Origin: Escherichia coli | GTDB lineage: Bacteria > Pseudomonadota > Gammaproteobacteria > Enterobacterales > Enterobacteriaceae | Length of the DNA: 64,000 nt | Strand: one strand, 5' to 3' | Assembly (NCBI RefSeq): GCF_030013595.1 | Contig: NZ_CP122768.1 | Part shown: positions 11,978 to 36,730 of the stretch, piece by piece | How the letters are laid out: each line of letters begins with the position of its first letter | Numbering within the stretch: position 1 is the stretch's first letter | The notes under the pieces: model-generated | Databases searched by the model: none | The model's input: the letters and a program-made list of their open reading frames with translations, nothing else | Told to the model about the DNA's origin: nothing | Position numbers and translations under genes: made by a program

Positions 11978-12026
11978 TCCCATCTGTTTTACTACGAGGC
12001 TGGAAGTATCCAGCCTCTGGATCCCA

Positions 12027-12380: not shown

Positions 12381-12457
12381 GTTATTCCCCATAATCAATG
12401 AGCTGGACGCCACTCGCGTCGTCCGTGTCTGAATCTTATACTAGAAAGATGACCAAA

Positions 12458-12500
12458 AGAAAAACCCCCAGACATTTCTGCCCGGGGGTTTGTTTATTTC
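12458..12500. terminator. bidirectional rho-independent terminator downstream of groL
   Basis: Inverted repeat aaaccccc...gggggttt flanked by T/A runs on both strands. Confidence 0.6.
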
Positions 12501-12517
12501 TGCGAGGTGCAGGGCAA

Positions 12518-14176
<1,659 letters not shown>

Positions 14177-14207
14177 TTAAATTCGTATGTTCAGTGTCGT
14201 GCGCGGA

Positions 14208-14552
<345 letters not shown>

Positions 14553-14580
14553 TTACGTGGTTTCCCGGCTGGTGACCAGA

Positions 14581-14615
14581 GAAATGGGGATGAGGCTTCG
14601 CCCCTTCAAGGGGGA
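14581..14615 (-). promoter_or_regulatory. sigma-32 heat-shock promoter of groSL
   Basis: Minus-strand CCCCCTTGAA (-35) and CCCCATTTC (-10) elements upstream of groS, matching the sigma-32 consensus. Confidence 0.7.
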
Positions 14616-14775
14616 AAAAGAAAAAAATTCTGATCAGCACAAAATCGGGTGAAAACCCTGATTCACCTCACATTTCATCGCAATTTCTTCATCACCGTCA
14701 TAAGCGAATCTGATTGTGCTACCATCGAAAATCTACGCAGTTGCCCATAATTTGGGCGCAATCGGACATCAACCC

Positions 14776-16032
14776 ATGAGTGGACTCAAACAAGAACTGG
14801 GACTGGCCCAGGGCATTGGCCTGCTATCGACGTCATTATTAGGCACTGGCGTGTTTGCCGTTCCTGCGTTAGCTGCGCTGGTAGCGGGCAATAACAGCCT
14901 GTGGGCGTGGCCCGTTTTGATTATCTTAGTGTTCCCGATTGCGATTGTGTTTGCGATTCTGGGTCGCCACTATCCCAGCGCAGGCGGCGTCGCGCACTTC
15001 GTCGGTATGGCGTTTGGTTCGCGGCTTGAGCGAGTCACCGGCTGGCTGTTTTTATCAGTCATTCCCGTGGGTTTGCCTGCCGCACTACAAATTGCAGCCG
15101 GATTCGGCCAGGCAATGTTTGGCTGGCATAGCTGGCAACTGTTGTTGGCAGAACTCGGTACGCTGGCGCTGGTGTGGTATATCGGTACTCGCGGTGCTAG
15201 TTCCAGTGCTAATCTACAAACAGTTATTGCCGGACTTATCGTCGCGCTGATTGTCGCTATCTGGTGGGCGGGCGATATCAAACCTGCGAATATCCCCTTC
15301 CCTGCACCTGGTAATATCGAACTTACCGGGTTATTTGCTGCGTTATCAGTGATGTTCTGGTGCTTTGTCGGTCTGGAGGCATTTGCCCATCTTGCCTCGG
15401 AATTTAAAAATCCAGAGCGTGATTTTCCTCGTGCTTTGATGATTGGTCTGCTGCTGGCAGGATTAGTCTACTGGGGCTGTACGGTAGTCGTCTTACACTT
15501 CGACGCCTATGGTGAACAAATGGCCGCGGCAGCATCGCTTCCAAAAATTGTAGTGCAGTTGTTCGGTGTAGGAGCGTTATGGATTGCCTGCGTGATTGGC
15601 TATCTGGCCTGCTTTGCCAGTCTCAACATTTATATACAGAGCTTCGCCCGCCTGGTCTGGTCGCAGGCGCAACATAATCCTGACCACTACCTGGCACGCC
15701 TCTCTTCTCGCCATATCCCGAATAATGCCCTCAATGCGGTGCTCGGCTGCTGCGTGGTGAGCACGCTGGTGATTCATGCTTTAGAGATCAATCTGGACGC
15801 TCTTATTATTTATGCCAATGGCATCTTTATTATGATTTATCTGTTATGCATGCTGGCAGGTTGTAAATTATTGCAAGGACGTTATCGACTACTGGCGGTG
15901 GTTGGCGGGCTGTTATGCGTTCTGTTACTGGCAATGATCGGCTGGAAAAGTCTCTATGCGCTGATCATGCTGGCGGGGTTATGGCTGTTTCTGCCAAAAC
16001 GAAAAACGCCGGAAAATGGCATAACCACATAA
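14776..16032 (+). CDS. yjeH: APC-family amino acid exporter YjeH
   Basis: Start at MSGLKQELGLAQGIG (418 aa); multi-TM. Confidence 0.85.
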   Translation: MSGLKQELGLAQGIGLLSTSLLGTGVFAVPALAALVAGNNSLWAWPVLIILVFPIAIVFAILGRHYPSAGGVAHFVGMAFGSRLERVTGWLFLSVIPVGLPAALQIAAGFGQAMFGWHSWQLLLAELGTLALVWYIGTRGASSSANLQTVIAGLIVALIVAIWWAGDIKPANIPFPAPGNIELTGLFAALSVMFWCFVGLEAFAHLASEFKNPERDFPRALMIGLLLAGLVYWGCTVVVLHFDAYGEQMAAAASLPKIVVQLFGVGALWIACVIGYLACFASLNIYIQSFARLVWSQAQHNPDHYLARLSSRHIPNNALNAVLGCCVVSTLVIHALEINLDALIIYANGIFIMIYLLCMLAGCKLLQGRYRLLAVVGGLLCVLLLAMIGWKSLYALIMLAGLWLFLPKRKTPENGITT

Positions 16033-16047
16033 TCCGGCGTTTCGACA

Positions 16048-16524
16048 TTAATCCTGGCGATCGTCTTTATGATCAAGGCGGTCGCGGTCATCATCCTTTC
16101 GCTGGTACTCACCATCAAAAGTATTACCGCCACCGGTCCCGGCGCTAAAACCGCCGCCTGGCATGCGAGAAAAGCGCAAATGCGGCATCAACTTCACTGT
16201 CAGATGCTTTTGCACCGGCGGCAATAAAAGCAGAAGACCGAGGAAGTCGGTGAAAAAGCCCGGTAATAAAAGCAGCAAACCGGCAATGATCAGCGAAACA
16301 CTTTTAATCATCTCCGCCGCTGGGTTTTCACCCGCCGCCATTTTTTGCTGCATCAGCACGAAATTCTTAAAGCCCTGGTTGCGTACCAGTGACATACCGA
16401 TAACTGACGTGAATATAACCAGCACGAGGGTCAGCAATACCCCCAATACATGGGCAACCTGAATAAAGATTGAAATCTCAATATAGACATAAAGGAAAAT
16501 GGCAATAAAAGGTAACCAGCGCAA
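16048..16524 (-). CDS. fxsA: inner-membrane protein FxsA
   Basis: 158 aa, hydrophobic N-terminus and acidic/basic C-tail; conserved neighbour of aspA. Confidence 0.85.
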   Translation of the reverse strand: MRWLPFIAIFLYVYIEISIFIQVAHVLGVLLTLVLVIFTSVIGMSLVRNQGFKNFVLMQQKMAAGENPAAEMIKSVSLIIAGLLLLLPGFFTDFLGLLLLLPPVQKHLTVKLMPHLRFSRMPGGGFSAGTGGGNTFDGEYQRKDDDRDRLDHKDDRQD

Positions 16525-16860
16525 GGGTTTCTCCTGTAATAGCAGCCGGTTAACCCCGGCTACCTGAATGGGTTGCGAATCGCGTTTAGCTTATATTGTG
16601 GTCATTAGCAAAATTTCAAGATGTTTGCGCAACTATTTTTGGTAGTAATCCCAAAGCGGTGATCTATTTCACAAATTAATAATTAAGGGGTAAAAACCGA
16701 CACTTAAAGTGATCCAGATTACGGTAGAAATCCTCAAGCAGCATATGATCTCGGGTATTCGGTCGATGCAGGGGATAATCGTCGGTCGAAAAACATTCGA
16801 AACCACATATATTCTGTGTGTTTAAAGCAAATCATTGGCAGCTTGAAAAAGAAGGTTCAC

Positions 16861-18297
16861 ATGTCAAACAACATTCGTATCGAAGAAGATCTGTTGGGTA
16901 CCAGGGAAGTTCCAGCTGATGCCTACTATGGTGTTCACACTCTGAGAGCGATTGAAAACTTCTATATCAGCAACAACAAAATCAGTGATATTCCTGAATT
17001 TGTTCGCGGTATGGTAATGGTTAAAAAAGCCGCAGCTATGGCAAACAAAGAGCTGCAAACCATTCCTAAAAGTGTAGCGAATGCCATCATTGCCGCATGT
17101 GATGAAGTCCTGAACAACGGAAAATGCATGGATCAGTTCCCGGTAGACGTCTACCAGGGCGGCGCAGGTACTTCCGTAAACATGAACACCAACGAAGTGC
17201 TGGCCAATATCGGTCTGGAACTGATGGGTCACCAGAAAGGTGAATATCAGTACCTGAACCCGAACGACCATGTTAACAAATGTCAGTCCACTAACGACGC
17301 CTACCCGACCGGTTTCCGTATCGCAGTTTACTCTTCCCTGATTAAGCTGGTAGATGCGATTAACCAACTGCGTGAAGGCTTTGAACGTAAAGCTGTCGAA
17401 TTCCAGGACATCCTGAAAATGGGTCGTACCCAGCTGCAGGACGCAGTACCGATGACCCTCGGTCAGGAATTCCGCGCTTTCAGCATCCTGCTGAAAGAAG
17501 AAGTGAAAAATATCCAACGTACCGCTGAACTGCTGCTGGAAGTTAACCTTGGCGCAACAGCAATCGGTACTGGTCTGAACACGCCGAAAGAGTACTCTCC
17601 GCTGGCAGTGAAAAAACTGGCTGAAGTCACTGGCTTCCCATGCGTACCGGCTGAAGACCTGATCGAAGCGACCTCTGACTGCGGCGCTTATGTTATGGTT
17701 CACGGCGCGTTGAAACGCCTGGCTGTGAAGATGTCCAAAATCTGTAACGACCTGCGCTTGCTCTCTTCTGGTCCACGTGCCGGCCTGAACGAGATCAACC
17801 TGCCGGAACTGCAGGCGGGCTCTTCCATCATGCCAGCTAAAGTAAACCCGGTTGTTCCGGAAGTGGTTAACCAGGTATGCTTCAAAGTCATCGGTAACGA
17901 CACCACTGTTACCATGGCAGCAGAAGCAGGTCAGCTGCAGTTGAACGTTATGGAGCCGGTCATTGGCCAGGCTATGTTCGAATCCGTTCACATTCTGACC
18001 AACGCTTGCTACAACCTGCTGGAAAAATGCATTAACGGCATCACTGCTAACAAAGAAGTGTGCGAAGGTTACGTTTACAACTCTATCGGTATCGTTACTT
18101 ACCTGAACCCGTTCATCGGTCACCACAACGGTGACATCGTGGGTAAAATCTGTGCCGAAACCGGTAAGAGTGTACGTGAAGTCGTTCTGGAACGCGGTCT
18201 GTTGACTGAAGCGGAACTTGACGATATTTTCTCCGTACAGAATCTGATGCACCCGGCTTACAAAGCAAAACGCTATACTGATGAAAGCGAACAGTAA
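16861..18297 (+). CDS. aspA: aspartate ammonia-lyase
   Basis: Start at [17 protein letters not shown] (478 aa); fumarase/aspartase family signature [10 protein letters not shown] present. Confidence 0.96.
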
Positions 18298-18321
18298 TCG
18301 TACAGGGTAGTACAAATAGAG

Positions 18322-18350
18322 AAGGCACGTCAGATGACGTGCCTTTTTTC
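18322..18350 (+). terminator. rho-independent terminator after aspA
   Basis: aaggcacgtca-gat-gacgtgcctt hairpin followed by T-run. Confidence 0.75.
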
Positions 18351-18414
18351 TTGTGAGCAGTAACTTAAAAATAACAATCTAATATCAACTTGTTAAAAAA
18401 CAAGGAAGGCTAAT

Positions 18415-19716
18415 ATGCTAGTTGTAGAACTCATCATAGTTTTGCTGGCGATCTTCTTGGGCGCCAGATTGGGGGGAATAGGTATTGGTTTTGCAGGCGG
18501 ATTGGGGGTGCTGGTTCTTGCCGCTATTGGCGTTAAACCCGGTAACATCCCGTTCGATGTCATTTCCATTATCATGGCGGTTATCGCCGCTATTTCTGCC
18601 ATGCAGGTTGCTGGCGGTCTGGACTATCTGGTTCATCAGACAGAAAAGCTGCTGCGCCGTAACCCGAAATACATCACGATCCTCGCACCGATCGTGACCT
18701 ATTTCCTGACAATCTTTGCTGGTACTGGCAACATCTCTCTGGCGACACTGCCAGTTATCGCTGAAGTTGCGAAGGAACAAGGCGTTAAACCTTGCCGTCC
18801 GCTGTCTACTGCAGTGGTATCCGCGCAGATTGCGATCACCGCATCGCCAATCTCAGCGGCAGTGGTTTACATGTCTTCCGTAATGGAAGGTCATGGCATC
18901 AGCTACCTCCATCTGCTCTCCGTGGTCATCCCGTCCACCCTGCTGGCGGTTCTGGTGATGTCCTTCCTGGTCACTATGCTGTTCAACTCCAAACTCTCTG
19001 ACGATCCGATTTATCGCAAGCGTCTGGAAGAGGGCCTGGTTGAACTGCGCGGTGAAAAGCAGATTGAAATCAAATCCGGTGCAAAAACGTCCGTCTGGCT
19101 GTTCCTGCTGGGCGTAGTTGGCGTGGTTATCTATGCAATCATCAACAGCCCAAGCATGGGTCTGGTTGAAAAACCGCTGATGAACACCACCAACGCAATC
19201 CTGATCATTATGCTCAGCGTTGCAACTCTGACCACCGTTATCTGTAAAGTCGATACCGACAACATCCTCAACTCCAGCACCTTCAAAGCAGGTATGAGCG
19301 CCTGTATTTGTATCCTGGGTGTTGCGTGGCTGGGCGATACTTTCGTTTCCAACAACATCGACTGGATCAAAGATACCGCTGGTGAAGTGATTCAGGGTCA
19401 TCCGTGGCTGCTGGCCGTCATCTTCTTCTTTGCTTCTGCTCTGCTGTACTCTCAGGCTGCAACCGCAAAAGCACTGATGCCGATGGCTCTGGCACTGAAC
19501 GTTTCTCCGCTGACCGCTGTTGCTTCTTTCGCTGCGGTGTCAGGTCTGTTCATTCTGCCGACCTACCCGACGCTGGTTGCTGCGGTACAGATGGATGACA
19601 CGGGTACTACCCGTATCGGTAAATTCGTCTTCAACCATCCGTTCTTCATCCCGGGTACTCTGGGTGTTGCCCTGGCCGTTTGCTTCGGCTTCGTGCTGGG
19701 TAGCTTCATGCTGTAA
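18415..19716 (+). CDS. dcuA: anaerobic C4-dicarboxylate transporter DcuA
   Basis: 433 aa multi-TM protein, conserved downstream of aspA. Confidence 0.95.
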   Translation: MLVVELIIVLLAIFLGARLGGIGIGFAGGLGVLVLAAIGVKPGNIPFDVISIIMAVIAAISAMQVAGGLDYLVHQTEKLLRRNPKYITILAPIVTYFLTIFAGTGNISLATLPVIAEVAKEQGVKPCRPLSTAVVSAQIAITASPISAAVVYMSSVMEGHGISYLHLLSVVIPSTLLAVLVMSFLVTMLFNSKLSDDPIYRKRLEEGLVELRGEKQIEIKSGAKTSVWLFLLGVVGVVIYAIINSPSMGLVEKPLMNTTNAILIIMLSVATLTTVICKVDTDNILNSSTFKAGMSACICILGVAWLGDTFVSNNIDWIKDTAGEVIQGHPWLLAVIFFFASALLYSQAATAKALMPMALALNVSPLTAVASFAAVSGLFILPTYPTLVAAVQMDDTGTTRIGKFVFNHPFFIPGTLGVALAVCFGFVLGSFML

Positions 19717-19724
19717 TGATCAAT

Positions 19725-19751
19725 CGCGGGGCGTTCACGCCCCGCTTTCTT
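19725..19751 (+). terminator. rho-independent terminator after dcuA
   Basis: gcggggcg-ttca-cgccccgc hairpin followed by tttcttt. Confidence 0.75.
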
Positions 19752-19831
19752 TCCCGCCGACTAACATCCTTCCCCCGTCCGTTGTATAGTGACCTCTCTC
19801 TTGCGGTTCCATCTGTTCTTGCGAGGTGTTT

Positions 19832-20170
19832 ATGCTTGATGAAAAAAGTTCGAATACCGCGTCTGTCGTGGTGCTATGTACCGCACCGGATGAAGCGACA
19901 GCCCAGGATTTAGCCGCCAAAGTGCTGGCGGAAAAACTGGCGGCCTGCGCGACCTTGATCCCCGGCGCAACCTCTCTTTATTACTGGGAAGGTAAGCTGG
20001 AGCAAGAATACGAAGTGCAGATGATTTTAAAAACTACCGTATCTCTCCAGCAGGCACTGCTGGAATGCCTGAAGTCTCATCATCCATATCAAACCCCGGA
20101 ACTTCTGGTTTTACCTGTTACACACGGAGACACAGATTACCTCTCATGGCTCAACGCATCTTTACGCTGA
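19832..20170 (+). CDS. cutA: divalent-cation tolerance protein CutA
   Basis: Start at [14 protein letters not shown] (112 aa); overlaps dsbD start. Confidence 0.9.
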
Positions 20171-21843
20171 TCCTGCTACTTTGCAGCACTTCCGTTTTTG
20201 CCGGATTATTCGACGCGCCGGGACGTTCACAATTTGTCCCGGCGGATCAAGCCTTTGCTTTTGATTTTCAGCAAAACCAACATGACCTTAATCTGACCTG
20301 GCAGATCAAAGACGGTTACTACCTCTACCGTAAACAGATCCGCATTACGCCGGAACACGCGAAAATTGCCGACGTGCAGCTGCCGCAAGGCGTCTGGCAT
20401 GAAGATGAGTTTTACGGCAAAAGCGAGATTTACCGCGATCGGCTGACGCTTCCCGTAACCATCAACCAGGCGAGTGCGGGAGCGACGTTAACTGTCACCT
20501 ACCAGGGCTGTGCTGATGCCGGTTTCTGTTATCCGCCAGAAACCAAAACCGTTCCGTTAAGCGAAGTGGTCGCCAACAACGCAGCGTCACAGCCTGTGTC
20601 TGTTCCGCAGCAAGAGCAGCCCACCGCGCAATTGCCCTTTTCCGCGCTCTGGGCGTTGTTGATCGGTATTGGTATCGCCTTTACGCCATGCGTGTTGCCA
20701 ATGTACCCACTGATTTCTGGCATCGTGCTGGGCGGTAAACAGCGGCTTTCCACTGCCAGGGCATTGTTGCTGACCTTTATTTATGTGCAGGGGATGGCGC
20801 TGACTTACACGGCACTGGGTCTGGTGGTTGCCGCCGCAGGGTTACAGTTCCAGGCGGCGCTACAGCACCCATACGTGCTCATTGGCCTCGCTATCGTCTT
20901 TACCTTGCTGGCGATGTCAATGTTTGGCTTGTTTACTCTGCAACTCCCCTCTTCGCTGCAAACACGTCTCACGCTGATGAGCAATCGCCAACAGGGCGGC
21001 TCACCTGGCGGTGTGTTTGTTATGGGAGCGATTGCCGGACTGATCTGTTCACCATGCACCACCGCACCGCTTAGCGCGATTCTGCTGTATATCGCCCAAA
21101 GCGGGAACATGTTGCTGGGGGGCGGCACGCTTTATCTCTATGCGTTGGGCATGGGCCTGCCGCTGATGCTAATAACCGTCTTTGGTAACCGCCTGCTGCC
21201 GAAAAGCGGCCCGTGGATGGAACAAGTCAAAACCGCGTTTGGTTTTGTGATCCTCGCACTGCCGGTCTTCCTGCTGGAGCGAGTGATTGGTGATATATGG
21301 GGATTACGCTTGTGGTCGGCGCTTGGTGTCGCATTCTTTGGCTGGGCCTTTATCACCAGCCTACAGGCCAAACGCGGCTGGATGCGCGTGGTGCAAATAA
21401 TCCTGCTGGCAGCGGCATTGGTTAGCGTGCGCCCACTTCAGGATTGGGCATTTGGTGCGACGCATACCGCGCAAACTCAGACGCATCTCAACTTTACACA
21501 AATCAAAACGGTAGATGAGTTAAATCAGGCGCTCGTTGAAGCCAAAGGCAAACCAGTGATGTTAGATCTCTATGCCGACTGGTGCGTCGCCTGTAAAGAG
21601 TTTGAGAAATACACCTTCAGCGACCCGCAGGTGCAAAAAGCGTTAGCAGACACGGTCTTACTTCAGGCTAACGTCACTGCCAACGACGCCCAAGATGTGG
21701 CGCTGTTAAAGCATCTTAATGTCCTTGGCCTACCGACAATTCTCTTTTTTGACGGACAAGGCCAGGAGCATCCACAAGCACGCGTCACGGGCTTTATGGA
21801 TGCTGAAACCTTTAGCGCACATTTGCGCGATCGCCAACCGTGA
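20146..21843 (+). CDS. dsbD: thiol:disulfide interchange protein DsbD (DipZ)
   Basis: Start at [19 protein letters not shown] (565 aa); central TM domain and C-terminal thioredoxin-like domain with WCVAC motif. Confidence 0.95.
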
Positions 21844-21879
21844 ACGACACTTGCAGTGGGAAAGACGGAGGAAAATAGC

Positions 21880-22455
21880 GTGCAACGTGAAGATGTACTG
21901 GGAGAAGCCCTGAAATTATTAGAATTACAAGGGATTGCCAACACCACGCTGGAGATGGTTGCTGAACGTGTGGATTATCCACTGGACGAGCTACGCCGCT
22001 TCTGGCCAGACAAAGAGGCAATCCTCTACGATGCGCTGCGTTATCTTAGCCAACAGATAGATGTCTGGCGTCGTCAGCTGATGCTGGACGAAACGCAAAC
22101 CGCCGAACAAAAGTTGCTGGCACGTTATCAGGCGTTATCGGAGTGCGTTAAAAACAACCGCTATCCGGGCTGTCTGTTTATCGCTGCCTGTACGTTTTAT
22201 CCCGATCCTGGCCACCCTATTCATCAACTGGCCGATCAGCAAAAAAGCGCGGCCTACGATTTCACCCACGAACTGTTAACCACACTGGAAGTTGACGATC
22301 CGGCGATGGTAGCAAAGCAGATGGAACTGGTGCTGGAAGGCTGTTTAAGCCGAATGCTGGTGAATCGTAGCCAGGCGGATGTCGACACCGCACATCGGCT
22401 GGCGGAAGATATCCTGCGCTTCGCCCGCTGCCGCCAGGGTGGTGCTTTGACCTGA
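21880..22455 (+). CDS. yjdC: TetR-family transcriptional regulator YjdC
   Basis: GTG start chosen for the 191-aa product; N-terminal HTH region; last backbone gene before tRNA-Phe. Confidence 0.75.
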
Positions 22456-22561
22456 CAGAAACACAGAAAAGAAGCGATTTGCCGCAATCTTAAGCAGTTG
22501 AATCGCTTTTACTGAAATTAGGTTGACGAGATGTGCAGATTACGGTTTAATGCGCCCCGTT

Positions 22562-22637
22562 GCCCGGATAGCTCAGTCGGTAGAGCAGGGGATTGAAAAT
22601 CCCCGTGTCCTTGGTTCGATTCCGAGTCCGGGCACCA
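22562..22637 (+). tRNA. pheU: tRNA-Phe (anticodon GAA)
   Basis: 76-nt sequence GCCCGGATAGCTCAGTCGGTAGAGCAGGGGATTGAAAATCCCC...GGGCACCA with GAA anticodon loop and encoded CCA; whether this is the pheU or the identical pheV copy is inferred from the flanking yjdC/cadC context. Confidence 0.97.
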
Positions 22638-22650
22638 AATTCATATCAAC

Positions 22651-22678
22651 GGACCTCCACGGAGGTCCGTTTTTCGTT
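22651..22678 (+). terminator. putative terminator downstream of tRNA-Phe
   Basis: ggacctccacggaggtcc hairpin followed by gtttttcg. Confidence 0.5.
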
Positions 22679-22834
22679 TCAGAACACCATGATTTAAGTG
22701 TTCTTCCTCCAAATCAATTCTACCGAACTCAACCAAATTCTCCCCACATCAACCTCATTGTGTGGGTATAATTGCGGGTATACCCCAGTTCGACAGAATT
22801 TGTACCCTCTTTAACGCATTCAGAAGGCTGAACT

Positions 22835-24097
22835 ATGGCACTGACTGACGCAAAAATCCGGGCTGCAAAGCCCACTGACAAGGCTTATAAACTCACTGAC
22901 GGGGCCGGCATGTTCCTGCTGGTTCATCCTAATGGTTCCCGTTACTGGCGTCTCCGTTATCGTATTCTGGGTAAGGAGAAGACTCTGGCACTTGGTGTGT
23001 ATCCGGAAGTTTCTCTCTCCGAAGCTCGTACAAAACGGGATGAGGCCCGAAAACTGATTTCAGAGGGGATTGACCCTTGCGAACAGAAAAGAGTTAAAAA
23101 AGTTGTCCCTGATTTACAGCTCTCTTTTGAACATATTGCACGACGCTGGCATGCCAGTAATAAACAATGGGCACAATCACACAGCGATAAAGTACTCAAA
23201 AGCCTCGAGACACACGTTTTCCCCTTTATCGGCAACCGGGATATCACAACACTCAATACCCCGGACCTGCTTATCCCTGTTCGTGCTGCAGAAGCAAAAC
23301 AAATTTATGAAATCGCCAGTCGTCTGCAGCAAAGAATATCTGCTGTAATGCGTTATGCCGTACAGTCTGGCATCATCAGATATAACCCGGCTCTGGATAT
23401 GGCTGGTGCATTGACCACGGTAAAACGCCAGCATCGCCCTGCTCTGGATCTTTCACGCCTGCCTGAACTTCTGTCGCGTATTGACGGTTATAAAGGCCAG
23501 CCTGTCACCCGACTGGCAGTTATGCTGAATTTACTGGTTTTTATTCGTTCCAGTGAACTCAGATATGCCCGCTGGTCTGAAATTGATATTGACAATGCCA
23601 TGTGGACTATTCCAGCCGAACGCGAACCTCTGCCAGGCGTAAAATTTTCATACCGGGGCTCCAAGATGCGAACACCACATCTTGTGCCACTCAGCCAACA
23701 GGCTGTAGCCATACTGGCAGAACTTCAGACATGGGCAGGTGAAAATGGTCTGATCTTTACGGGAGCACATGACCCACGTAAACCAATCAGTGAAAACACC
23801 GTAAATAAAGCCCTGAGGGTTATGGGGTATGACACAACCCAGGATGTCTGTGGTCATGGATTCCGGGCGATGGCATGTAGTGCATTAATAGAATCAGGTT
23901 TGTGGTCCCGCGATGCTGTGGAACGCCAGATGAGCCATCAGGAGCGTAATGGTGTACGTGCTGCGTATATCCATAAAGCCGAACATCTGGAAGAACGTCG
24001 ACTTATGCTACAGTGGTGGGCAGATTTTCTGGATGCGAACAGAGAACAATGTATCAGCCCGTTTGAATATGCAAAGATTAACAATCCATTAAAATAG
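22835..24097 (+). CDS. P4-type tyrosine integrase (island integrase)
   Basis: 420 aa; N-terminal MALTDAKIRAAKPTDKAYKLTDGAGMFLLVHPNGSRYWRLRYR arm-binding domain and C-terminal HGFRAMACSAL catalytic region typical of CP4/P4 integrases; sits directly 3' of a tRNA gene. Confidence 0.9.
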   Translation: MALTDAKIRAAKPTDKAYKLTDGAGMFLLVHPNGSRYWRLRYRILGKEKTLALGVYPEVSLSEARTKRDEARKLISEGIDPCEQKRVKKVVPDLQLSFEHIARRWHASNKQWAQSHSDKVLKSLETHVFPFIGNRDITTLNTPDLLIPVRAAEAKQIYEIASRLQQRISAVMRYAVQSGIIRYNPALDMAGALTTVKRQHRPALDLSRLPELLSRIDGYKGQPVTRLAVMLNLLVFIRSSELRYARWSEIDIDNAMWTIPAEREPLPGVKFSYRGSKMRTPHLVPLSQQAVAILAELQTWAGENGLIFTGAHDPRKPISENTVNKALRVMGYDTTQDVCGHGFRAMACSALIESGLWSRDAVERQMSHQERNGVRAAYIHKAEHLEERRLMLQWWADFLDANREQCISPFEYAKINNPLK

Positions 24098-24282
24098 TAA
24101 TCATCCCGGGCAGCTAGCCCGGGAATTATTTTCTGAATATTTTTCTTTGTGAGTAACTGGAAAAAGGATAGCGAAGTAAATTACTTTAATGAATTATTCC
24201 AGGGGCTCATTAAAGTTCTTTCGTAATACTTTGTAGTCAAACACGTTATGGCTGGCATCAAAAACCAGGTAATGACTCCAAC

Positions 24283-24780
24283 TTATTGATAGTGTTTTAT
24301 GTTCAGATAATGCCCGATGACCTTGTCATGCAGCTCCACCGATTTTGAGAACGACAGTGACTTCCGTCCCAGCCTTGCCAGATGTTGTCTCAGATTATGT
24401 CGCTCAATGCGCTGAGTGTAACGCTTGCTGATAACGTGCAGCTTTCCCTTCAGGCGTGATTCATACAGCGGCCAGCCATCCGTCATCTATACCACGACCT
24501 CAAAGGCCGACAGCAGGCTCAGAATACGCTCCAGTGTGGCCAGAGTGCGTTCACCGAAGACGTGCGCCACAACCGTCCTCCGTATCCTGTCATACGCGTA
24601 AAACAGCCAGCGCTGACGTGATTTAGCACCGACGTAGCCCCACTGTTCGTCCATTTCAGCGCAGACAATCACATCACTGCCCGGTTGTATGCGCGAGGTT
24701 ACCGACTGCGGCCTGAGTTTTTTAAGTGACGTAAAACCGTGTTGAGGCCAACGCCCATAATGCGTGCACTGGCGCGACAT
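24283..24780 (-). pseudogene. insB: IS1 insB, disrupted
   Basis: Split into 97-aa and 67-aa ORFs by a premature stop where copy B has Trp (VVV*MTDGW), and HNLRQ instead of HNLNLRQ. Confidence 0.8.
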
Positions 24781-24974
24781 CCGACGCCATTCATGGCCAT
24801 ATCAATGATTTTCTGGTGCTTACCGGGCTGAGAGGCGGTGTAAGTGAACTGTAGTTGCCATGTTTTACGGCAATGAGAGCAGAGATAGCGCTGATGTCCG
24901 GCAGTGCTTTTGCCGTTACGCACCACGCCTTCAGTAGCGGAGCAGGAAGGACATCTGATGGAAATGGAAGCCAC
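24699..24974 (-). CDS. insA: IS1 InsA
   Basis: 91-aa zinc-finger/HTH protein [23 protein letters not shown]... Confidence 0.9.
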
Positions 24975-25194
24975 GCAAGCACCTTAAAATCACCATCATA
25001 CACTAAATCAGTAAGTTGGCAGCATTACCGAAATCCCCATCCTTTAGGGCAGTGAGAATGTCAATAATAGCAGACCACATCATGAGTCATTTTGACCGAC
25101 ACATGCAGAAGCAGAGGCTCCATCCCATTTTATACCTACCCTATAACACTTAGAAAAACAACATGTTAAAAATGTCTATTGGAAACAATTTTAT

Positions 25195-25250
25195 TTCCAA
25201 TTGTAATGATAACCATTCTCATATTAATATGGCTACGTGATAATTAACTT
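25195..25250 (+). promoter_or_regulatory. fecI promoter region with Fur box
   Basis: tgtaatgataaccattctc (25202..25220) resembles the Fur-box consensus GATAATGATAATCATTATC; immediately upstream of fecI. Confidence 0.6.
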
Positions 25251-25264
25251 TTGATGCACTCCGC

Positions 25265-25782
25265 ATGTCTGACCGCGCCACTACCACAGCTTCCTTAACG
25301 TTCGAGTCGCTTTATGGCACACATCACGGCTGGTTGAAAAGCTGGCTGACGCGCAAACTCCAGTCTGCTTTTGATGCAGATGACATTGCCCAGGACACTT
25401 TTTTGCGGGTAATGGTCAGCGAAACGCTCTCGACGATCCGCGATCCTCGCTCCTTCCTGTGCACTATCGCCAAACGCGTGATGGTGGACCTGTTTCGCCG
25501 AAACGCGCTGGAAAAAGCGTATCTGGAGATGCTGGCGCTTATGCCGGAGGGGGGAGCGCCTTCACCTGAGGAACGCGAAAGCCAACTCGAGACCCTACAA
25601 CTCCTCGACAGCATGCTGGACGGGCTAAACGGCAAAACACGTGAAGCGTTTCTGCTTTCGCAACTGGATGGTCTGACATACAGCGAGATTGCGCACAAAC
25701 TCGGTGTTTCCATCAGCTCCGTGAAAAAATACGTGGCGAAAGCCGTCGAGCACTGCCTGCTGTTCCGTCTGGAGTATGGGTT

Positions 25783-25786
<4 letters not shown>
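25265..25786 (+). CDS. fecI: ECF sigma factor FecI
   Basis: 173 aa, sigma-70 region 2 and 4 features; followed by fecR. Confidence 0.95.
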
Positions 25787-29147
<3,361 letters not shown>

Positions 29148-29191
29148 TGTGTTAACGCCCGGCTTGCCGGGCTTTTAGCTGGAATGTGATT

Positions 29192-30094
29192 ATGTTGGCA
29201 TTTATCCGTTTTCTTTTTGCAGGCCTGCTGCTGGTGATCAGCCACGCCTTTGCCGCCACGGTTCAGGACGAACACGGCACGTTTACACTCGAAAAAACGC
29301 CACAACGGATTGTGGTGCTGGAACTCTCGTTCGCCGATGCGCTGGCCGCCGTGGACGTCAGCCCGATCGGTATTGCCGACGATAACGATGCAAAACGCAT
29401 CCTGCCCGAAGTGCGTGCGCACCTGAAACCGTGGCAGTCCGTCGGAACGCGCGCGCAGCCGAGCCTGGAAGCCATTGCCGCTCTGAAACCAGACCTGATC
29501 ATTGCCGACAGCAGTCGCCATGCGGGGGTTTACATCGCCTTGCAGCAAATCGCGCCGGTACTGCTGCTTAAGTCCCGCAACGAAACCTACGCTGAAAATT
29601 TGCAATCTGCGGCTATCATCGGCGAAATGGTGGGTAAAAAGCGAGAGATGCAGGCACGTCTGGAACAACATAAAGAGAGGATGGCGCAGTGGGCCAGCCA
29701 GCTTCCCAAAGGGACACGCGTGGCCTTTGGCACATCACGCGAACAGCAATTCAACCTGCATACTCAGGAGACCTGGACCGGCAGCGTGCTGGCCTCTCTG
29801 GGGCTGAACGTTCCCGCTGCGATGGCGGGTGCGTCCATGCCGTCCATCGGCCTGGAGCAACTGCTGGCGGTCAATCCTGCCTGGCTGCTGGTTGCCCACT
29901 ATCGCGAAGAGAGCATTGTTAAACGCTGGCAACAAGATCCGCTCTGGCAGATGTTAACCGCCGCGCAGAAGCAGCAGGTTGCTTCGGTCGACAGTAACAC
30001 CTGGGCGCGGATGCGCGGTATTTTTGCTGCAGAGCGTATTGCCGCTGACACGGTAAAAATCTTCCACCATCAGCCGCTTACCGTTGTGAAATGA
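29192..30094 (+). CDS. fecB: periplasmic ferric citrate-binding protein FecB
   Basis: Start at MLAFIRFLFAGLLLVISHAFA (300 aa). Confidence 0.93.
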   Translation: MLAFIRFLFAGLLLVISHAFAATVQDEHGTFTLEKTPQRIVVLELSFADALAAVDVSPIGIADDNDAKRILPEVRAHLKPWQSVGTRAQPSLEAIAALKPDLIIADSSRHAGVYIALQQIAPVLLLKSRNETYAENLQSAAIIGEMVGKKREMQARLEQHKERMAQWASQLPKGTRVAFGTSREQQFNLHTQETWTGSVLASLGLNVPAAMAGASMPSIGLEQLLAVNPAWLLVAHYREESIVKRWQQDPLWQMLTAAQKQQVASVDSNTWARMRGIFAAERIAADTVKIFHHQPLTVVK

Positions 30095-31089
30095 CCGCGA
30101 TAAAACACCCGGTGCTGCTGTGGGGGCTTCCCGTTGCAGCACTTATTATTATTTTCTGGCTGAGTCTGTTTTGCTACTCGGCCATTCCTGTTTCCGGAGC
30201 AGATGCAACCCGCGCCCTGCTGCCTGGACACACGCCAACGCTACCAGAAGCGCTGGTGCAAAACCTTCGTTTGCCACGAAGCCTCGTCGCCGTTCTGATC
30301 GGCGCAAGCCTGGCGCTCGCGGGCACGCTGCTGCAAACCCTGACCCACAACCCAATGGCCTCTCCTTCACTGCTCGGCATTAACAGCGGCGCGGCGCTGG
30401 CTATGGCGCTTACCAGCGCGCTGAGTCCGACGCCGATTGCAGGCTATTCTCTGTCGTTCATCGCGGCATGCGGGGGCGGCGTGAGCTGGCTGCTGGTCAT
30501 GACCGCAGGAGGCGGATTTCGTCATACCCATGACAGAAACAAACTGATCCTCGCGGGTATCGCGCTGTCGGCCTTTTGTATGGGCCTTACCCGCATCACC
30601 CTGCTGCTGGCCGAAGATCATGCTTACGGCATCTTTTACTGGCTGGCAGGCGGAGTGTCCCACGCCCGCTGGCAGGATGTCTGGCAGCTCTTGCCGGTGG
30701 TGGTCACTGCAGTCCCTGTCGTGTTGCTGCTGGCGAATCAACTGAACCTGCTCAACCTCAGCGACAGCACCGCCCATACGCTGGGAGTGAACCTGACGAG
30801 GCTACGTTTGGTCATCAATATGTTAGTGCTGCTTCTGGTTGGTGCGTGCGTCAGCGTGGCAGGTCCGGTGGCATTTATCGGTCTGCTGGTGCCACATCTG
30901 GCGCGCTTCTGGGCAGGCTTCGATCAGCGCAACGTACTGCCAGTGAGCATGCTGCTGGGGGCCACGCTGATGCTGCTGGCAGATGTACTCGCACGCGCGC
31001 TGGCCTTCCCCGGAGATCTGCCCGCAGGCGCAGTGCTGGCGCTGATTGGCAGCCCTTGCTTTGTCTGGCTTGTGAGGAGGCGAGGATGA
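30091..31089 (+). CDS. fecC: ferric citrate ABC permease FecC
   Basis: 332 aa FecCD-family permease. Confidence 0.93.
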   Translation: MTAIKHPVLLWGLPVAALIIIFWLSLFCYSAIPVSGADATRALLPGHTPTLPEALVQNLRLPRSLVAVLIGASLALAGTLLQTLTHNPMASPSLLGINSGAALAMALTSALSPTPIAGYSLSFIAACGGGVSWLLVMTAGGGFRHTHDRNKLILAGIALSAFCMGLTRITLLLAEDHAYGIFYWLAGGVSHARWQDVWQLLPVVVTAVPVVLLLANQLNLLNLSDSTAHTLGVNLTRLRLVINMLVLLLVGACVSVAGPVAFIGLLVPHLARFWAGFDQRNVLPVSMLLGATLMLLADVLARALAFPGDLPAGAVLALIGSPCFVWLVRRRG

Positions 31090-32042
31090 AAATTGCGCTG
31101 GTTATTTTCATCACCCTTGCCCTGGCGGGCTGTGCGCTGTTATCACTCCATATGGGAGTGATCCCCGTGCCGTGGCGCGCGCTGCTGACCGACTGGCAGG
31201 CCGGACGCGAGCATTATTATGTATTGATGGAGTACCGACTGCCGCGCTTGCTGCTGGCACTGTTTGTCGGTGCAGCCCTCGCCGTGGCGGGTGTGCTGAT
31301 ACAGGGGATTGTGCGCAACCCTCTGGCATCACCGGATATTCTCGGCGTTAACCATGCCGCCAGCCTGGTCTCTGTGGGGGCTCTACTTCTTATGCCGTCA
31401 CTGCCCGTGATGGTGCTGCCGCTGCTGGCCTTTGCGGGCGGCATGGCGGGGTTGATATTGCTGAAGATGCTGGCAAAGACCCACCAGCCGATGAAGCTGG
31501 CGCTCACCGGCGTGGCGCTTTCTGCATGCTGGGCCAGCCTGACGGATTATCTGATGCTCTCGCGCCCGCAGGATGTGAACAACGCCCTGCTGTGGCTGAC
31601 CGGCAGCTTATGGGGCCGTGACTGGAGCTTTGTGAAGATTGCCATCCCGCTGATGATTTTATTTCTGCCGCTGAGCCTGAGTTTTTGCCACGATCTCGAC
31701 CTCCTTGCACTCGGCGATGCGCGCGCCACCACGCTCGGTGTGTCGGTGCCCCATACCCGATTCTGGGCTTTGTTACTAGCTGTCGCCATGACATCTACCG
31801 GCGTGGCCGCCTGCGGCCCGATTAGCTTTATTGGTCTCGTGGTGCCGCATATGATGCGTAGCATCACCGGTGGACGTCACCGCAGACTGCTGCCTGTTTC
31901 GGCCCTGACAGGTGCGTTGCTGTTGGTGGTTGCCGATCTGCTGGCGAGAATTATTTATCCCCCACTGGAGCTCCCGGTTGGCGTGCTGACCGCCATTATC
32001 GGTGCGCCGTGGTTTGTCTGGTTGCTTGTGAGAATGCGATAA
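31086..32042 (+). CDS. fecD: ferric citrate ABC permease FecD
   Basis: Start at MKIALVIFITLALAG overlapping fecC stop; the 488-aa ORF in the track is an upstream over-extension in this GC-rich region. Confidence 0.92.
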   Translation: MKIALVIFITLALAGCALLSLHMGVIPVPWRALLTDWQAGREHYYVLMEYRLPRLLLALFVGAALAVAGVLIQGIVRNPLASPDILGVNHAASLVSVGALLLMPSLPVMVLPLLAFAGGMAGLILLKMLAKTHQPMKLALTGVALSACWASLTDYLMLSRPQDVNNALLWLTGSLWGRDWSFVKIAIPLMILFLPLSLSFCHDLDLLALGDARATTLGVSVPHTRFWALLLAVAMTSTGVAACGPISFIGLVVPHMMRSITGGRHRRLLPVSALTGALLLVVADLLARIIYPPLELPVGVLTAIIGAPWFVWLLVRMR

Positions 32043-32810
32043 ATGACTTTACGAACTGAAAATCTGACGGTCAGTTACGGGACAGACAAGGTACTTAACG
32101 ACGTTTCACTCTCACTGCCAACGGGGAAGATCACCGCCCTGATCGGTCCTAACGGTTGCGGGAAATCGACGCTGTTAAACTGTTTTTCGCGGCTTTTAAT
32201 GCCGCAGTCTGGCACCGTATTTCTCGGCGATAATCCCATAAATATGCTCTCATCGCGCCAGTTGGCCCGCAGGCTTTCGCTGCTGCCTCAGCACCATTTA
32301 ACGCCAGAGGGGATCACAGTCCAGGAGCTGGTTTCGTATGGTCGTAATCCCTGGCTGTCACTCTGGGGGCATCTCTCCGCTGAAGACAATGCACGAGTTA
32401 ATGTCGCCATGAACCAGACCCGGATTAATCATCTTGCCGTTCGTCGGTTAACCGAGCTTTCCGGCGGTCAGCGCCAGCGCGCATTTCTGGCGATGGTCCT
32501 GGCCCAGAATACGCCCGTTGTATTACTTGATGAACCAACCACCTATCTTGATATCAATCACCAGGTGGACCTGATGCGGTTGATGGGCGAACTCCGGACT
32601 CAGGGGAAAACGGTGGTCGCTGTGCTGCACGACCTTAATCAGGCTAGCCGGTACTGCGATCAACTGGTGGTAATGGCAAACGGGCATGTTATGGCGCAAG
32701 GCACACCAGAAGAGGTGATGACCCCAGGATTGCTGAGAACAGTATTCAGCGTGGAAGCGGAAATACACCCCGAGCCGGTATCTGGCAGGCCGATGTGCCT
32801 AATGAGGTAG
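32043..32810 (+). CDS. fecE: ferric citrate ABC ATPase FecE
   Basis: 255 aa with Walker A GPNGCGKST and ABC signature LSGGQRQR. Confidence 0.95.
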   Translation: MTLRTENLTVSYGTDKVLNDVSLSLPTGKITALIGPNGCGKSTLLNCFSRLLMPQSGTVFLGDNPINMLSSRQLARRLSLLPQHHLTPEGITVQELVSYGRNPWLSLWGHLSAEDNARVNVAMNQTRINHLAVRRLTELSGGQRQRAFLAMVLAQNTPVVLLDEPTTYLDINHQVDLMRLMGELRTQGKTVVAVLHDLNQASRYCDQLVVMANGHVMAQGTPEEVMTPGLLRTVFSVEAEIHPEPVSGRPMCLMR

Positions 32811-33347
32811 ATTGCACAGGCCGTAAGAACCAAACCACGACTGAATGAAACTGGACTGGCGCCAGCAAGCCAGTTCAGACTGGGGCTGAACTTTTCCGGA
32901 CTCTGAAAGATTACCAATACTCATCGTCCATCCGCTTGCTTTAGGCTGACAGGTTCATAATCAACGCAAACCAGAGCTGTACAGGCTTGGGCGCGGCTTT
33001 CAAACCAGTCGTGATCACGGCAATCAATTTTGAACTCTGCTTAACGGACATTTCTGTATAACCCTTACGGCAACGAAAAACGCGAAGTTAAAATTTTAGA
33101 AACCCAAAAACGTGACATGACTAAGTTTAGATTTCAGGGGGGAGATCAAAAAATTTCGCTCTGTGCCAGAGCGGACATTCATGGAGCTGGTTCATTACCA
33201 ATGAGGTTGGGCTTTTGAGGATAAATCAATGATCAGACGCCAACGTAAATCAAAAGCAACCCTGGAACGGAATTGCTAATCCAGTTTCTGACCATCGATT
33301 TTTCTAAAAAGTGTGCGTTTGCTACTACTTAGGTAGGTGCAGCTTTC

Positions 33348-34662
33348 TTAATCACCGGCAGCCACGCTGGTCTGTTTACTGTCGTACTTACTGGTGTCCT
33401 GCTGGCTGCTTATCAGCAGGTCGTGGCCCACATCGGCGATAATCCTGTTGCCGTTGACCTGAGCACCGTTCAGTACCGTATCCCGACCACTGTTGATGGT
33501 GACGGTTTTACCGCTGTCTGTTGTGGTTTCAGTCCACTCAGTACCGTTACCTTTCTCGCTGCCTTTTGCCGCATTAACGCTGGCAAAGACGCTGATACCG
33601 GCACCGTTACCACCGGCACCGATACTGACACCCACGCCACCGCCAGCCCCGGTTATCAATGGTGCTGAGGTAGTCACTCCATGAATACGTGTAATCCACC
33701 AGGGTATAGCCATACGGCAGACTGACACCGGCGGCAAAATTCCTCGCATCATGTGACACCGAAAAGTCACTGCTCCGTCCCCCGCTGACAAACCAGTTGT
33801 CAGCCAGCCCCAGAGGATTATTAAAGGAAAGGACACCATTTAACTGCCCCGTACCGGTATTCTTCTGCCCGCTGTTGTCGATGCCCACGCTCCCTGTGAC
33901 TGGCCATTCCGGCAATGCCGTCAGTGTCACCACCGACCATCCCTCACGGTCACCGGGCGATATTTCAATCTGTACCGGTTCCGTACGCAGACGATTAATC
34001 TGCTCCATCCCCTGCTCAATATCCCGCAGGTTCAGAACCTTCCCCTCCATTCCCGGGAAAACCATCTTCAGGGTGCGGGCAGGAAGGTCAGCGCCTTCCG
34101 CCCGGATTTGCTGCAGCCTGCCTTCCATGACCGTTATGTGCAGTACGCCCCCTGAAAGGTCCTGCTCTGTCAGAAAGGCCCGGCTGGTGATATATCCCCG
34201 GCGTATATAGCCGTCCGTCACGGCATCCGTGACCGCAGTCAGGCCGGTGATATTCAGACACTGATTCACCCACGGTGCCACCAGTCTGTCGGTTTCTGCA
34301 GACGTCAGTCGGGTGGCCCCACTGACAACAATGCGTGACACCGTAAAGCAGGGGCCTTCAGTACCGGCAGACGTTTCCGGAGACGGCGTGATAGTCAGCG
34401 GCGCACTGCGCTCCAGCGCATCACGCTGATGCTGGTTTTCATCCAGCAACTGCTGCTGTTGCTGCTGAATTGCACTGCGGTCACCCGGAGACAGCATGGC
34501 TGCCGGAGACGAAAATGCGGGGATAAAAAAACCAGAAAAAACGGAGAGGGAGAGATAGCATATCCACGGAGAGCCACGCCGGAACATATCACAACAGGGG
34601 ACAGACAACGCACGGGATAAAAGGGACGTTTTCGTCAGAATGTTGTTCTGCCGGCGCTGCAT
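33348..34662 (-). pseudogene. two-partner-secretion locus remnant: truncated TpsB (ShlB/FhaC/CdiB-family) transporter plus out-of-frame glycine-rich hemagglutinin-like fragment
   Basis: 351-aa ORF has signal-peptide region, poly-Gln stretch and POTRA-like N-terminal half but ends prematurely; an overlapping 163-aa ORF in another frame is Gly/Thr/Asn-rich like TpsA passenger repeats. Confidence 0.6.
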
Positions 34663-35177
34663 GTTCTCCCCGTATTCTGGCCTGTGTGATGCCAGTGTAA
34701 ATTCATGTCAAAAAGTGTCAGCGAGAAAATTTACACCTGAAAAAGTCTGTCATGAAACAGTTTTATGACAAGACATCAAAAAAATGTCAAAAACGTGATC
34801 TTTCTTCAGCTTTTCAGAATATTGAGTACCAGGAAGTCAATATCAATTCTGGGACACATATGCATTTACCATTAAAACCGGGCACAACAAGCTGTTCAGT
34901 CTCAATCCATACCCCGTGTTTTATCAATATCAGAATAAGAATATCTGCGGATAAATAAAAAAGGAATGTCGAGGGAGCTTACCGCAGAGGGCTCTCCACC
35001 TCACAAACCATTTACAAAAATGATACCGGCATATCTTTGGTCCCTGTCACAACCAGACATTGACAATCCAATATAACCCCAAATATATTTCGGGTAAGAA
35101 GTCTGGGATTTATACAGATATACTGTCTGTTATTACTATTTAATTATATAATTGTATTGCATACATAAGAGGCACTA

Positions 35178-35567
35178 ATGAAACGTTATATAAAATGGTT
35201 TGCCATCACAATTTTTATCAGTATGTTGAGTGCCTGTGCCCGTACGGCCCCAGTGCAACAGATAAGCACCACTGTCAGTGTGGGTCATACTCAGGAGCAG
35301 GTTAAAAATGCCATTTTGAAAGCAGGTGCGCAGCGCAAGTGGATTATGACGCAAGTGTCCCCTGGAGTTATTAAAGCTCGCTATCAAACACGAAATCACG
35401 TTGCAGAGGTTCGTATTACATATACAGCTACCTACTATAACATCAAATATGACAGTAGCCTGAATCTGCAGGCTTCTGATGGAAAAATTCATAAAAACTA
35501 TAACCGCTGGGTGCGTAACCTAGATAAAGATATACAGGTTAACTTATCTACAGGAGCAACGTTATAG
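35178..35567 (+). CDS. apeA: small lipoprotein, first gene of the APE-type cluster
   Basis: 129 aa with lipobox ISMLSAC; sits 64 bp upstream of the methyltransferase gene; symbol assigned by gene order in the published ape nomenclature. Confidence 0.6.
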   Translation: MKRYIKWFAITIFISMLSACARTAPVQQISTTVSVGHTQEQVKNAILKAGAQRKWIMTQVSPGVIKARYQTRNHVAEVRITYTATYYNIKYDSSLNLQASDGKIHKNYNRWVRNLDKDIQVNLSTGATL

Positions 35568-35631
35568 TGATGCTGATATCGGGCTGGAATGGCCCGATAG
35601 TATTTAACTTTCTCTATAAGAATGGTTATAT

Positions 35632-36690: not shown

Positions 36691-36730
36691 TCGTCACTTA
36701 ATAATTTTGGTTTACCGCGGGCGCGCGTTG

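Follow-up and report, generated by a model that had tools for sequence, protein, structure and literature searches.

IS1F of Escherichia coli K-12 is reported to be a divergent insertion sequence that is nearly inactive or essentially non-transposing (PMC12428005). Genomic islands with a fec core and a P4-type integrase at tRNA-Phe, in which yee and flu modules vary, have been described as 'intP4.2 GI-pheV' (PLoS Genet 2024, PMC11537424). Insertion sequence (IS) copies without target-site duplications (TSDs) have been put down to adjacent deletion or to IS-IS recombination (PMC11708052), and cad silencing is known from enteroinvasive E. coli (EIEC) and Shigella, with cadC as the preferred target (PMC5723341). 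The locus analyzed here lies in a 64,000-nt stretch of E. coli DNA (the window), and all its parts are of known kinds, namely IS1F-fec, a fec-core tRNA-Phe island, an IS-associated deletion and cadC inactivation. It contains two IS1 copies, designated A and B, which had originally been predicted to form a composite-transposon-like or deletion-prone structure around the DNA between them. We conclude that it is very probably by chance that two unrelated IS1 elements enclose the proximal half of a pheU island, copy A as an IS1F fossil and copy B as the mark of a deletion.

The window and its two IS1 copies

The window represents E. coli chromosome in the order yjeM-epmA-frd-ampC-...-groSL-aspA-dcuA-cutA-dsbD-yjdC, followed by pheU (Table 1). 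In K-12 and in the relatives examined, cadC adjoins pheU directly. The "cargo" between the IS1 copies is therefore the proximal part of a genomic island integrated at pheU. The ORFs of the lipid/polyketide cluster in this island are collinear with, and 99.9% identical to, annotated genes of Z1323PEC0008, and the label "aryl polyene" is presumed on the basis of what is established for this cluster in E. coli. At the distal end, deoK contains the PfkB domain (Pfam) and lacks its promoter and its first 10 nt (ATG + 7 nt). Beyond copy B, the residual cadC has lost its promoter, DNA-binding domain and membrane segment, and Pfam detects only the end of CadC_C1 in it. The cadB-cadA region that follows is 99.98% identical to that of the island-free relative HCP5S3_I2.

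Table 1. Features of the pheU-cad region, in coordinates of the window
Feature	Position	Strand	Evidence and remarks
pheU, tRNA-Phe (GAA), island integration site	22562..22637	+	ARAGORN; dsbD-yjdC/dicD-tRNA-Phe order as in annotated references
attL-type repeat	22615..22770	+	Last 23 nt of pheU + 133 bp
P4-type tyrosine integrase, 420 aa	22835..24097	+	Intact; Pfam Arm-DNA-bind_3, Phage_int_M, Phage_integrase; length as in references
Phosphoethanolamine-transferase/sulfatase-like (ept-like) gene, 3' remnant	24194..24267	-	~75 nt, cut by IS1 A; partial gene in Z1323PEC0008 and NCTC9066
IS1 copy A, IS1F type	24268..25029	-	762 bp; both terminal repeats intact
insA of copy A	24699..24974	-	Intact
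IS1F-fec module, 9.1 kb	24268..33366	+	IS1F, frameshifted ykiE, fecIR, fecABCDE, 556 bp beyond
fecI, fecR, fecA, fecB, fecC, fecD, fecE (ferric citrate uptake)	25265..32810	+	Full-length ORFs; lengths match annotated references
Two-partner-secretion remnant: hemagglutinin fragment and truncated ShlB/FhaC-type transporter	33348..34662	-	Pfam POTRA_2, POTRA_3, ShlB 1-99 of 311; partial genes in reference
Aryl-polyene-type lipid/polyketide cluster (presumed label)	35632..50199	+	Ketosynthases, ACPs, acyltransferase, LolA-like protein, MMPL exporter, FabG2
LacI-family regulator (-) and ascorbate-type PTS IIA/IIB/IIC (+)	51039..54356		ORFs, reference annotation
Deoxyribose operon	55278..58557	-	Aldose epimerase 55278..56291, permease 56303..57619, deoK kinase 57647..58557
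IS1 copy B	58558..59325	-	768 bp; both terminal repeats intact
insB of copy B	58573..59076	-	Intact; A6C frameshift site present
insA of copy B	58995..59270	-	Intact
cadC, 3' 702 nt	59326..60027	+	Codons 280-512, periplasmic sensor part only
cadB	60393..61727	+	Structurally intact
cadA	about 61807..63954	+	Structurally intact

Two IS1 copies, A and B, and no others were found within the window, and both fit the IS1 family. Their ends (GGTAATGACTCC... and ...GGCAGCAT(T/C)ACC) equal those of K-12 IS1A and IS1F, with copy A running from GGTAATGACTCC at 24268 to ...GCAGCATTACC at 25029 and copy B from GGTAATGACTCC at 58558 to ...GCAGCATCACC at 59325. Both carry the Pfam domains Zn_ribbon_InsA, HTH_Tnp_IS1 and DDE_Tnp_IS1, have insB' in the -1 frame and contain the slippery site AAAAAAC at position 306. 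The two copies lie in the same orientation, with insA and insB of both on the minus strand; the alignment agrees in this with the original prediction, and the inverted arrangement, named there as the contrary outcome, was not observed. The DNA between them measures 33,528 bp (25030..58557), in line with the claim that about 33.5 kb are bracketed by direct repeats. Pairwise alignment of A and B gave 29-30 substitutions and one 6-bp gap (~ 96% identity), with a longest identical run of 145 bp.

The defects of copy A lie in insB. A tryptophan codon has become a stop (TGG to TAG on the coding strand, seen as CTA at 24487-24489 on the plus strand), and the frame reads ...FEVVV*MTDGWP, a stretch that is uninterrupted in copy B (12 residues). 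The stop splits the DDE_Tnp_IS1 domain of copy A at profile position 61/63 of 131, whereas the domain of copy B is whole. A further 6 bp are missing near 24390-24400, where copy A encodes RHNLRQ and copy B RHNLNLRQ; they correspond to one unit of a TCAGAT-TCAGAT tandem. Re-reading, together with the alignment for copy A, reproduced exactly the coordinates and lengths first reported for the two copies, as well as the Trp-to-stop change and the 6-bp insB deletion of copy A.

Copy A is flanked by CAAAAACCA on the left and GAAATCCCC on the right, copy B by CAATAACTG and GACAATGCA. Within 20-bp flanks, no word of at least 5 bases was common to left and right in any of the four combinations, which bears out the claimed lack of direct repeats both around each element and across the elements. 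As a positive control for TSD detection, IS1 insertions in cadC of EC556 and EH2252 displayed perfect 9-bp duplications (CACTACCGG and GGTTCAACC). The missing TSDs at A and B reflect rearrangement after insertion, not non-membership of the IS1 family. That neither copy is a simple insertion, as had been claimed, was likewise upheld: both lie at rearrangement junctions, which for B are resolved to the nucleotide (deoK nt 11 / cadC nt 838).

Copy A and the IS1F-fec module

Between copy A and K-12 IS1F there are 5 substitutions and a 6-bp gap; the substitutions number 70 against K-12 IS1A and ~ 30 against copy B. The junction on its fecI side (GCAGCATTACC followed by GAAATCCCC; also GCAGCATTACC followed by GAAATCCCCATCC) was base-identical in all contexts compared, namely the K-12 leuX element, the pheV island of NCTC9066, the pheU island of Z1323PEC0008, two IncF plasmids and the window. 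The outer flank of IS1F differs among these contexts, and no duplication surrounds the IS1F copy in K-12, NCTC9066, Z1323PEC0008, the two IncF plasmids or the window. The whole module is 99.5% identical, with the same end points, in K-12 KpLE2 and in E. coli F plasmids, and when it served as query, 964 plasmid records reached a coverage of at least 80%. Copy A is the orthologue of K-12 IS1F and the boundary element of the 9.1-kb IS1F-fec module.

Behind the same integrase in ETEC6334, the ept-like gene is present at full length (1,604 nt). In the window, a 75-nt remnant of this 1.6-kb gene stands outside copy A, and the rest of the gene is not found on the far side of the copy. The outer end of A is therefore a deletion or recombination joint, with the conserved IS1F-fecI junction at the inner end, and the claim that A had been involved in an adjacent deletion or recombination holds. 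The int-IS1-fec arrangement occurs in 81 complete genomes, at pheU or pheV, and the event at the outer joint is ancient and common to all of them. A model that explained the position of A through a K-12-like intB-yjgX arrangement was dropped in favor of the ETEC6334 comparison; K-12 intB is only ~ 70% identical, and yjgX has no DNA match.

The insB lesions form a decay series. The codon is TGG in IS1F of F plasmids (768/767 bp), TAG in K-12 and NCTC9066 (768 bp), and TAG in Z1323PEC0008 and the window (762 bp), indicating that the insB stop is old and the 6-bp deletion younger. In K-12, insB7 is annotated as a pseudogene. Copy A lost its transposase by the Trp-to-stop change shared with K-12, and afterwards one TCAGAT unit in this island sublineage. 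We infer that its fixed inner joint and variable outer joint were probably left by one of three processes: IS-mediated replicon fusion, adjacent deletion or IS-IS recombination. Since copies whose outer flanks differ have the stop in common, one or more of the flank changes took place without the copy's own transposase, or the stop was spread by gene conversion. The shared stop would fit recombination or a transposase acting in trans better than a self-catalyzed deletion.

Copy B and the joint between deoK and cadC

Copy B is a mosaic isoform, IS1F-like over its first 576 nt (IRR + insB) and IS1A-like over the remaining 192 nt (insA 5' end + IRL). Copies of 768 bp with 100% identity to B are present in many records, and among the matches listed all are from pig E. 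coli. Exact copies sit on chromosomes and plasmids, including a TSD-flanked insertion in cadC of EC556. An origin of B as a local hybrid of an IS1F-like and an IS1A-like copy was rejected, because the identical 768 bp are widespread in pig strains. This wide distribution, together with the TSD-flanked occurrence elsewhere, indicates that the mosaic is older than this locus.

Up to position 58557, the window follows the Z1323PEC0008 island collinearly (99.97% identity), and collinearity returns at 59326, within cadC. On the left, the reference has ...CCAATAACTG followed by CAATGTCCAT... at the breakpoint, and the window has IS1 in place of the right part (deoK nt 11). On the right, the breakpoint sequence of the reference is ...AAAATTGGTA followed by GACAATGCAG, which corresponds to cadC nt 838, codon 280 (position 5556 of locus L019). 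Elsewhere, the DNA between these two breakpoints amounts to 31,273 bp in Z1323PEC0008 and to ~ 21.2 kb in porcine P13-6. The interval missing at B holds deoQ, yfjI/alpA genes, Ag43, a yee/cbtA module, a DUF4942 gene, attR, an integrase fragment and the cadC promoter; the regulator deoQ lies beyond the deoK breakpoint in the references.

The attR was recognized as a 156-bp, 89%-identical att repeat picked up by sensitive BLAST. It is a direct copy of the attL-type repeat and lies just before cadC in Z1323PEC0008 (locus L003, 1980-2134), EC556 and EH2252, inside the interval deleted at B. No second copy of the attL-type repeat was found in the window, and a search for exact 16-30-nt repeats of the 3' end of pheU was negative for both the window and the reference. 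The original prediction mentioned neither the pheU island context nor the truncation of deoK and cadC by B, the loss of attR or the identity of A as the known IS1F.

The two closest backbone relatives, both UK pig isolates, are 100% identical to the window over positions 1-22500 and 99.98% identical over 59326-64000, with an empty pheU site and an intact cadC. Both outer flanks of the region are thus native chromosome, and the deletion at B happened in place. Copy B thus marks an IS1-associated deletion in situ, which took away the distal island together with attR and the half of CadC that binds DNA.

Neither the IS1-cadC(838) joint nor the deoK-IS1 joint was found in complete E. coli genomes (0/5,426). 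Both junctions of B (GGAGTCATTACC followed by CAGTTATTGG, and GCAGCATCACC followed by GACAATGCAG) recur in independent draft assemblies, and the carriers of the joint include GCA_008326365.1, GCA_036246605.1 and GCA_049544575.1 as well as runs SRR30668404 and SRR30668523. The cadC-side joint was present in ~ 28 or more draft assemblies or samples; for the deoK joint, draft evidence is informative only when the contig has an IS1 fragment 33 bp upstream. A 297-aa DeoK ORF was discarded as a lineage marker, being unspecific and called in many genomes with intact deoK, and one draft hit (L017) was a Nextera adapter artefact.

The drafts also bear on the quality of the assembly. Repeats of 768 bp are classic collapse points, and an IS1 at deoK and another in cadC might have been collapsed into one, with 21-31 kb still between them in reality. 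However, both junctions occur in independent drafts from different projects, and one draft assembly has a contig of 33,983 bp, a length matching the IS1A-to-IS1B span. A collapse would also need reciprocal junctions; none were seen, though the same samples were not searchable for these. We consider such an assembly artefact very unlikely.

According to the composite-transposon reading, copy A, the 33.5-kb cargo and copy B would make up a Tn9-like but larger element, inserted or mobile as a unit. The copies are direct repeats with intact outer ends (IRR of A, IRL of B), and composite transposition would in principle be allowed by this geometry. Copy B, with insA, insB and the A6C site intact, could serve as a source of transposase. 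However, no duplication surrounds the unit (CAAAAACCA to the left of A, GACAATGCA to the right of B). On the left, the unit borders on the integrase and the ept remnant, which belong to the island itself and are found likewise in the 81 genomes, which lack B; on the right follows cadC at its native site, with 99.98% identity to a relative that has no island. None of the 5,426 complete E. coli genomes contains this unit or the junction at B, and the two copies represent separate isoforms that differ greatly in age. The composite-transposon-like interpretation is thus not sustained: it is almost certainly wrong, and to frame A and B as a paired structure is misleading. Homologous recombination between A and B could plausibly delete the cargo, given their 96% identity and the 145-bp identical run. 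No product of such a deletion was found among the 5,426 complete genomes, and draft contigs, which break at IS1, are uninformative on it.

We regard the two copies as unrelated, and the history of B may be reconstructed as follows. In the ancestral state, a complete island would have occupied pheU, ending with attR just upstream of cadC. Copy B would have inserted at one of its present junctions, either at the deoK start or at cadC codon 280. An intramolecular IS1 event would then have removed everything up to the other junction, most simply as a transposase-made adjacent deletion or, alternatively, by recombination with a second IS1. What is missing, as the comparison with related genomes shows, is 21-31 kb of distal island, attR, the integrase fragment and, from cadC, the promoter and 837 nt. 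IS1 adjacent deletion proceeds through intramolecular replicative transposition. We infer this order of events, and prefer adjacent deletion for B because it involves fewer of them.

In a sub-variant of this explanation, the joints of B would stem from RecA-dependent recombination of two IS1 copies of the same isoform and orientation, one at the deoK start and one in cadC, either within one chromosome or between an incoming partial island and a resident cadC::IS1. In favor of it, IS-IS recombination is known to leave IS copies without duplications (PMC11708052), pig strains carry several copies of the B isoform, and cadC is a recurrent IS1 target, with independent insertions in two other strains. 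These strains, EC556 and EH2252, were considered as carriers of the same cadC insertion, which was rejected: theirs are independent simple insertions elsewhere in cadC, with 9-bp duplications, and they lie 312 nt from the gene end and 13 bp downstream of the site in the window. The recombination route, however, needs two insertions plus a recombination, as against one insertion plus one event. Neither single insertion was found in the 5,426 complete genomes, nor was any precursor with IS1 at only one of the B junctions, on which draft contigs are uninformative as well. In addition, B is 100% identical to copies elsewhere and carries no two-parent signature. We therefore rate recombination between two IS1 copies as possible but rather unlikely, and retain insertion followed by adjacent deletion as the preferred history of B.

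Consequences and comparison with known systems

Functional CadC is lost, as in cad-silenced E. coli, and only codons 280-512 remain. With the cadC promoter and the DNA-binding domain gone, cadBA is predicted to be non-inducible and the strain to be lysine-decarboxylase-negative. The deoxyribose operon is without its regulator, promoter and kinase start codon, and regulated deoxyribose use is predicted to be lost, with deoxyribose use impaired. The island keeps its integrase; since only attL is left and attR lay in the deleted interval, it is seen as a truncated derivative that is predicted to be unable to excise.

It is improbable, in our estimation, that the deletion at B was adaptive and defines the lineage of a clone circulating in association with pigs, and that the 35-kb fec-APE block can be mobilized or switched via B. 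If this were true, cadaverine production would be silenced as in the pathoadaptive cadC losses of EIEC, and the fec/aryl-polyene half would be locked into the chromosome. The transposase of B would then be able to use the outer termini of both copies, or to favor recombination between the two.

The deoK-IS1-cadC joint, with ~ 28 or more drafts and 0/5,426 complete genomes, could be used as a clonal marker. More generally, related genomes should be compared before two IS copies in the same orientation on either side of attractive cargo are taken for a transposon. Here, the absence of TSDs goes back to two well-known kinds of history: at A the IS1F-fec boundary, which is ancient, and at B a deletion associated with IS1, which is recent. 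Three independent IS1 events in cadC across strains agree with the literature on cadC as a frequent inactivation target. This recurrent targeting of cadC by IS1, and a predicted lysine-decarboxylase-negative, island-locked genotype in an apparently pig-associated lineage, are modest points of note.

Among known systems, Tn9 is similar to the locus in having two direct IS1 copies with intact outer ends around cargo. Unlike Tn9, the structure in the window has no TSD and no second location, its two copies differ in isoform and age, one of them is transposase-dead, and its flanks are native.

Copy A shares with K-12 IS1F (insA7 and the insB7 pseudogene, in KpLE2 at leuX) the ykiE-fecI junction, the TGG-to-TAG stop, the end of the 9.1-kb module and the lack of a TSD. 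The K-12 element has 768 bp, in contrast to the 762 bp of copy A, from which one TCAGAT unit is gone. The outer flank is yjhU at K-12 IS1F and the ept-like remnant behind a pheU/pheV-type integrase at copy A. Likewise, the module resides in the leuX element in K-12 but in a tRNA-Phe island in the window.

As in intP4.2 GI-pheV, the window has a tRNA-Phe gene, a P4-type integrase and a fec cluster beside the integrase, and full-length relatives of its island carry flu (Ag43) and yee (CP4-44-like) modules. The island is thus assignable by tRNA-Phe, P4-integrase and fec, while the distal attR is absent from it. In contrast to intP4.2 GI-pheV, it is located at pheU, its flu/yee modules and attR are gone, and it is fused to cadC through copy B.

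The joint at B resembles classical IS1 adjacent or IS-IS deletions (PMC11708052) in its single IS at a large deletion joint, the lack of a TSD and the new side(s); unlike in that class, the mechanism at B is a probable one, deduced from the product. As in the cad silencing of EIEC and Shigella, an IS disrupts cadC, and cadBA is intact and collinear with K-12. The lesion in the window differs in being a deletion that also took half an island, not a simple insertion. No enteroinvasive sign was seen in the window, and its relatives, like the IS1 isoform, suggest an E. coli associated with pigs.

Divergence of the island and its backbone

Divergence from the cat isolate Z1323PEC0008, which carries a full-length pheU island, was compared across window 12010..47040 as differences per 2 kb. 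The island differed at 0-2 positions per 2 kb, whereas the adjoining backbone differed at 11-31; a local patch within the island, at 34000-35999, carried 13 differences. The much greater similarity of the island than of its neighbouring backbone is consistent with the island having spread horizontally among lineages. The backbone at window 1..22500 was 100% identical to that of two UK pig isolates (NZ_CM149870.1 and NZ_CM149862.1), from both of which the pheU island was wholly absent. This alignment fell into two pieces, with ~1.34 kb of additional DNA in the isolates, presumably an IS.

IS1 B and the cadC locus

Comparison with the IS1A and IS1F copies of K-12 identifies IS1 B (58558..59325) as a mosaic isoform. 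Its nt 1-576 are IS1F-like (12 mismatches to IS1F, 49 to IS1A), and nt 577-768 are IS1A-like (2 mismatches to IS1A, 19 to IS1F). A copy at ≥99% identity was found in only 150 of 9,595 IS1-bearing records. Among the matches listed, all 40 copies with 100% identity came from pig E. coli, and such copies were located on both chromosomes and plasmids. Three independent IS1 insertions in cadC were identified in different strains: the window's own (59326, cadC nt 838) and those of EC556 and EH2252 (at L002 4398-5165 and L004 6001-6768). The EH2252 insertion is just 13 bp away from the joint in the window. The pattern suggests either that IS1 favours this region as a target or that loss of cadC has been selected repeatedly.

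Minor island features and the edges of the IS1F-fec module

Further features of the island are listed below.

Positions and characteristics of additional features in the window
Feature	Position	Description
Hairpin	22638..22690	Perfect, GC-rich, then T run (AACGGACCTCCACGGAGGTCCGTTTTT); directly 3' of pheU; presumably the tRNA terminator
ykiE	~25100..25170	Small ORF flanked by IS1 A and fecI; has an annotation in K-12 and NCTC9066
Two-partner-secretion remnant	33607..34662 (ShlB-type ORF)	Hemagglutinin fragment and truncated ShlB-type ORF
Transposase fragment	54572..54856	94 aa, HTH_Tnp_1 type; between PTS genes and deoxyribose operon

The hairpin falls inside the att repeat. The transposase fragment is an IS3-family orfA remnant and was kept in every full-length island examined. 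In ykiE, the window and Z1323PEC0008 share a 1-bp deletion, and the gene is annotated as frameshifted in the latter. At its distal end (window 33366/33367) the IS1F-fec module breaks off cleanly, with no IS present. Beyond this end the window continues into the two-partner-secretion remnant, unlike K-12 and F plasmids, in which the module is followed by yjhV/IS911/IS30.
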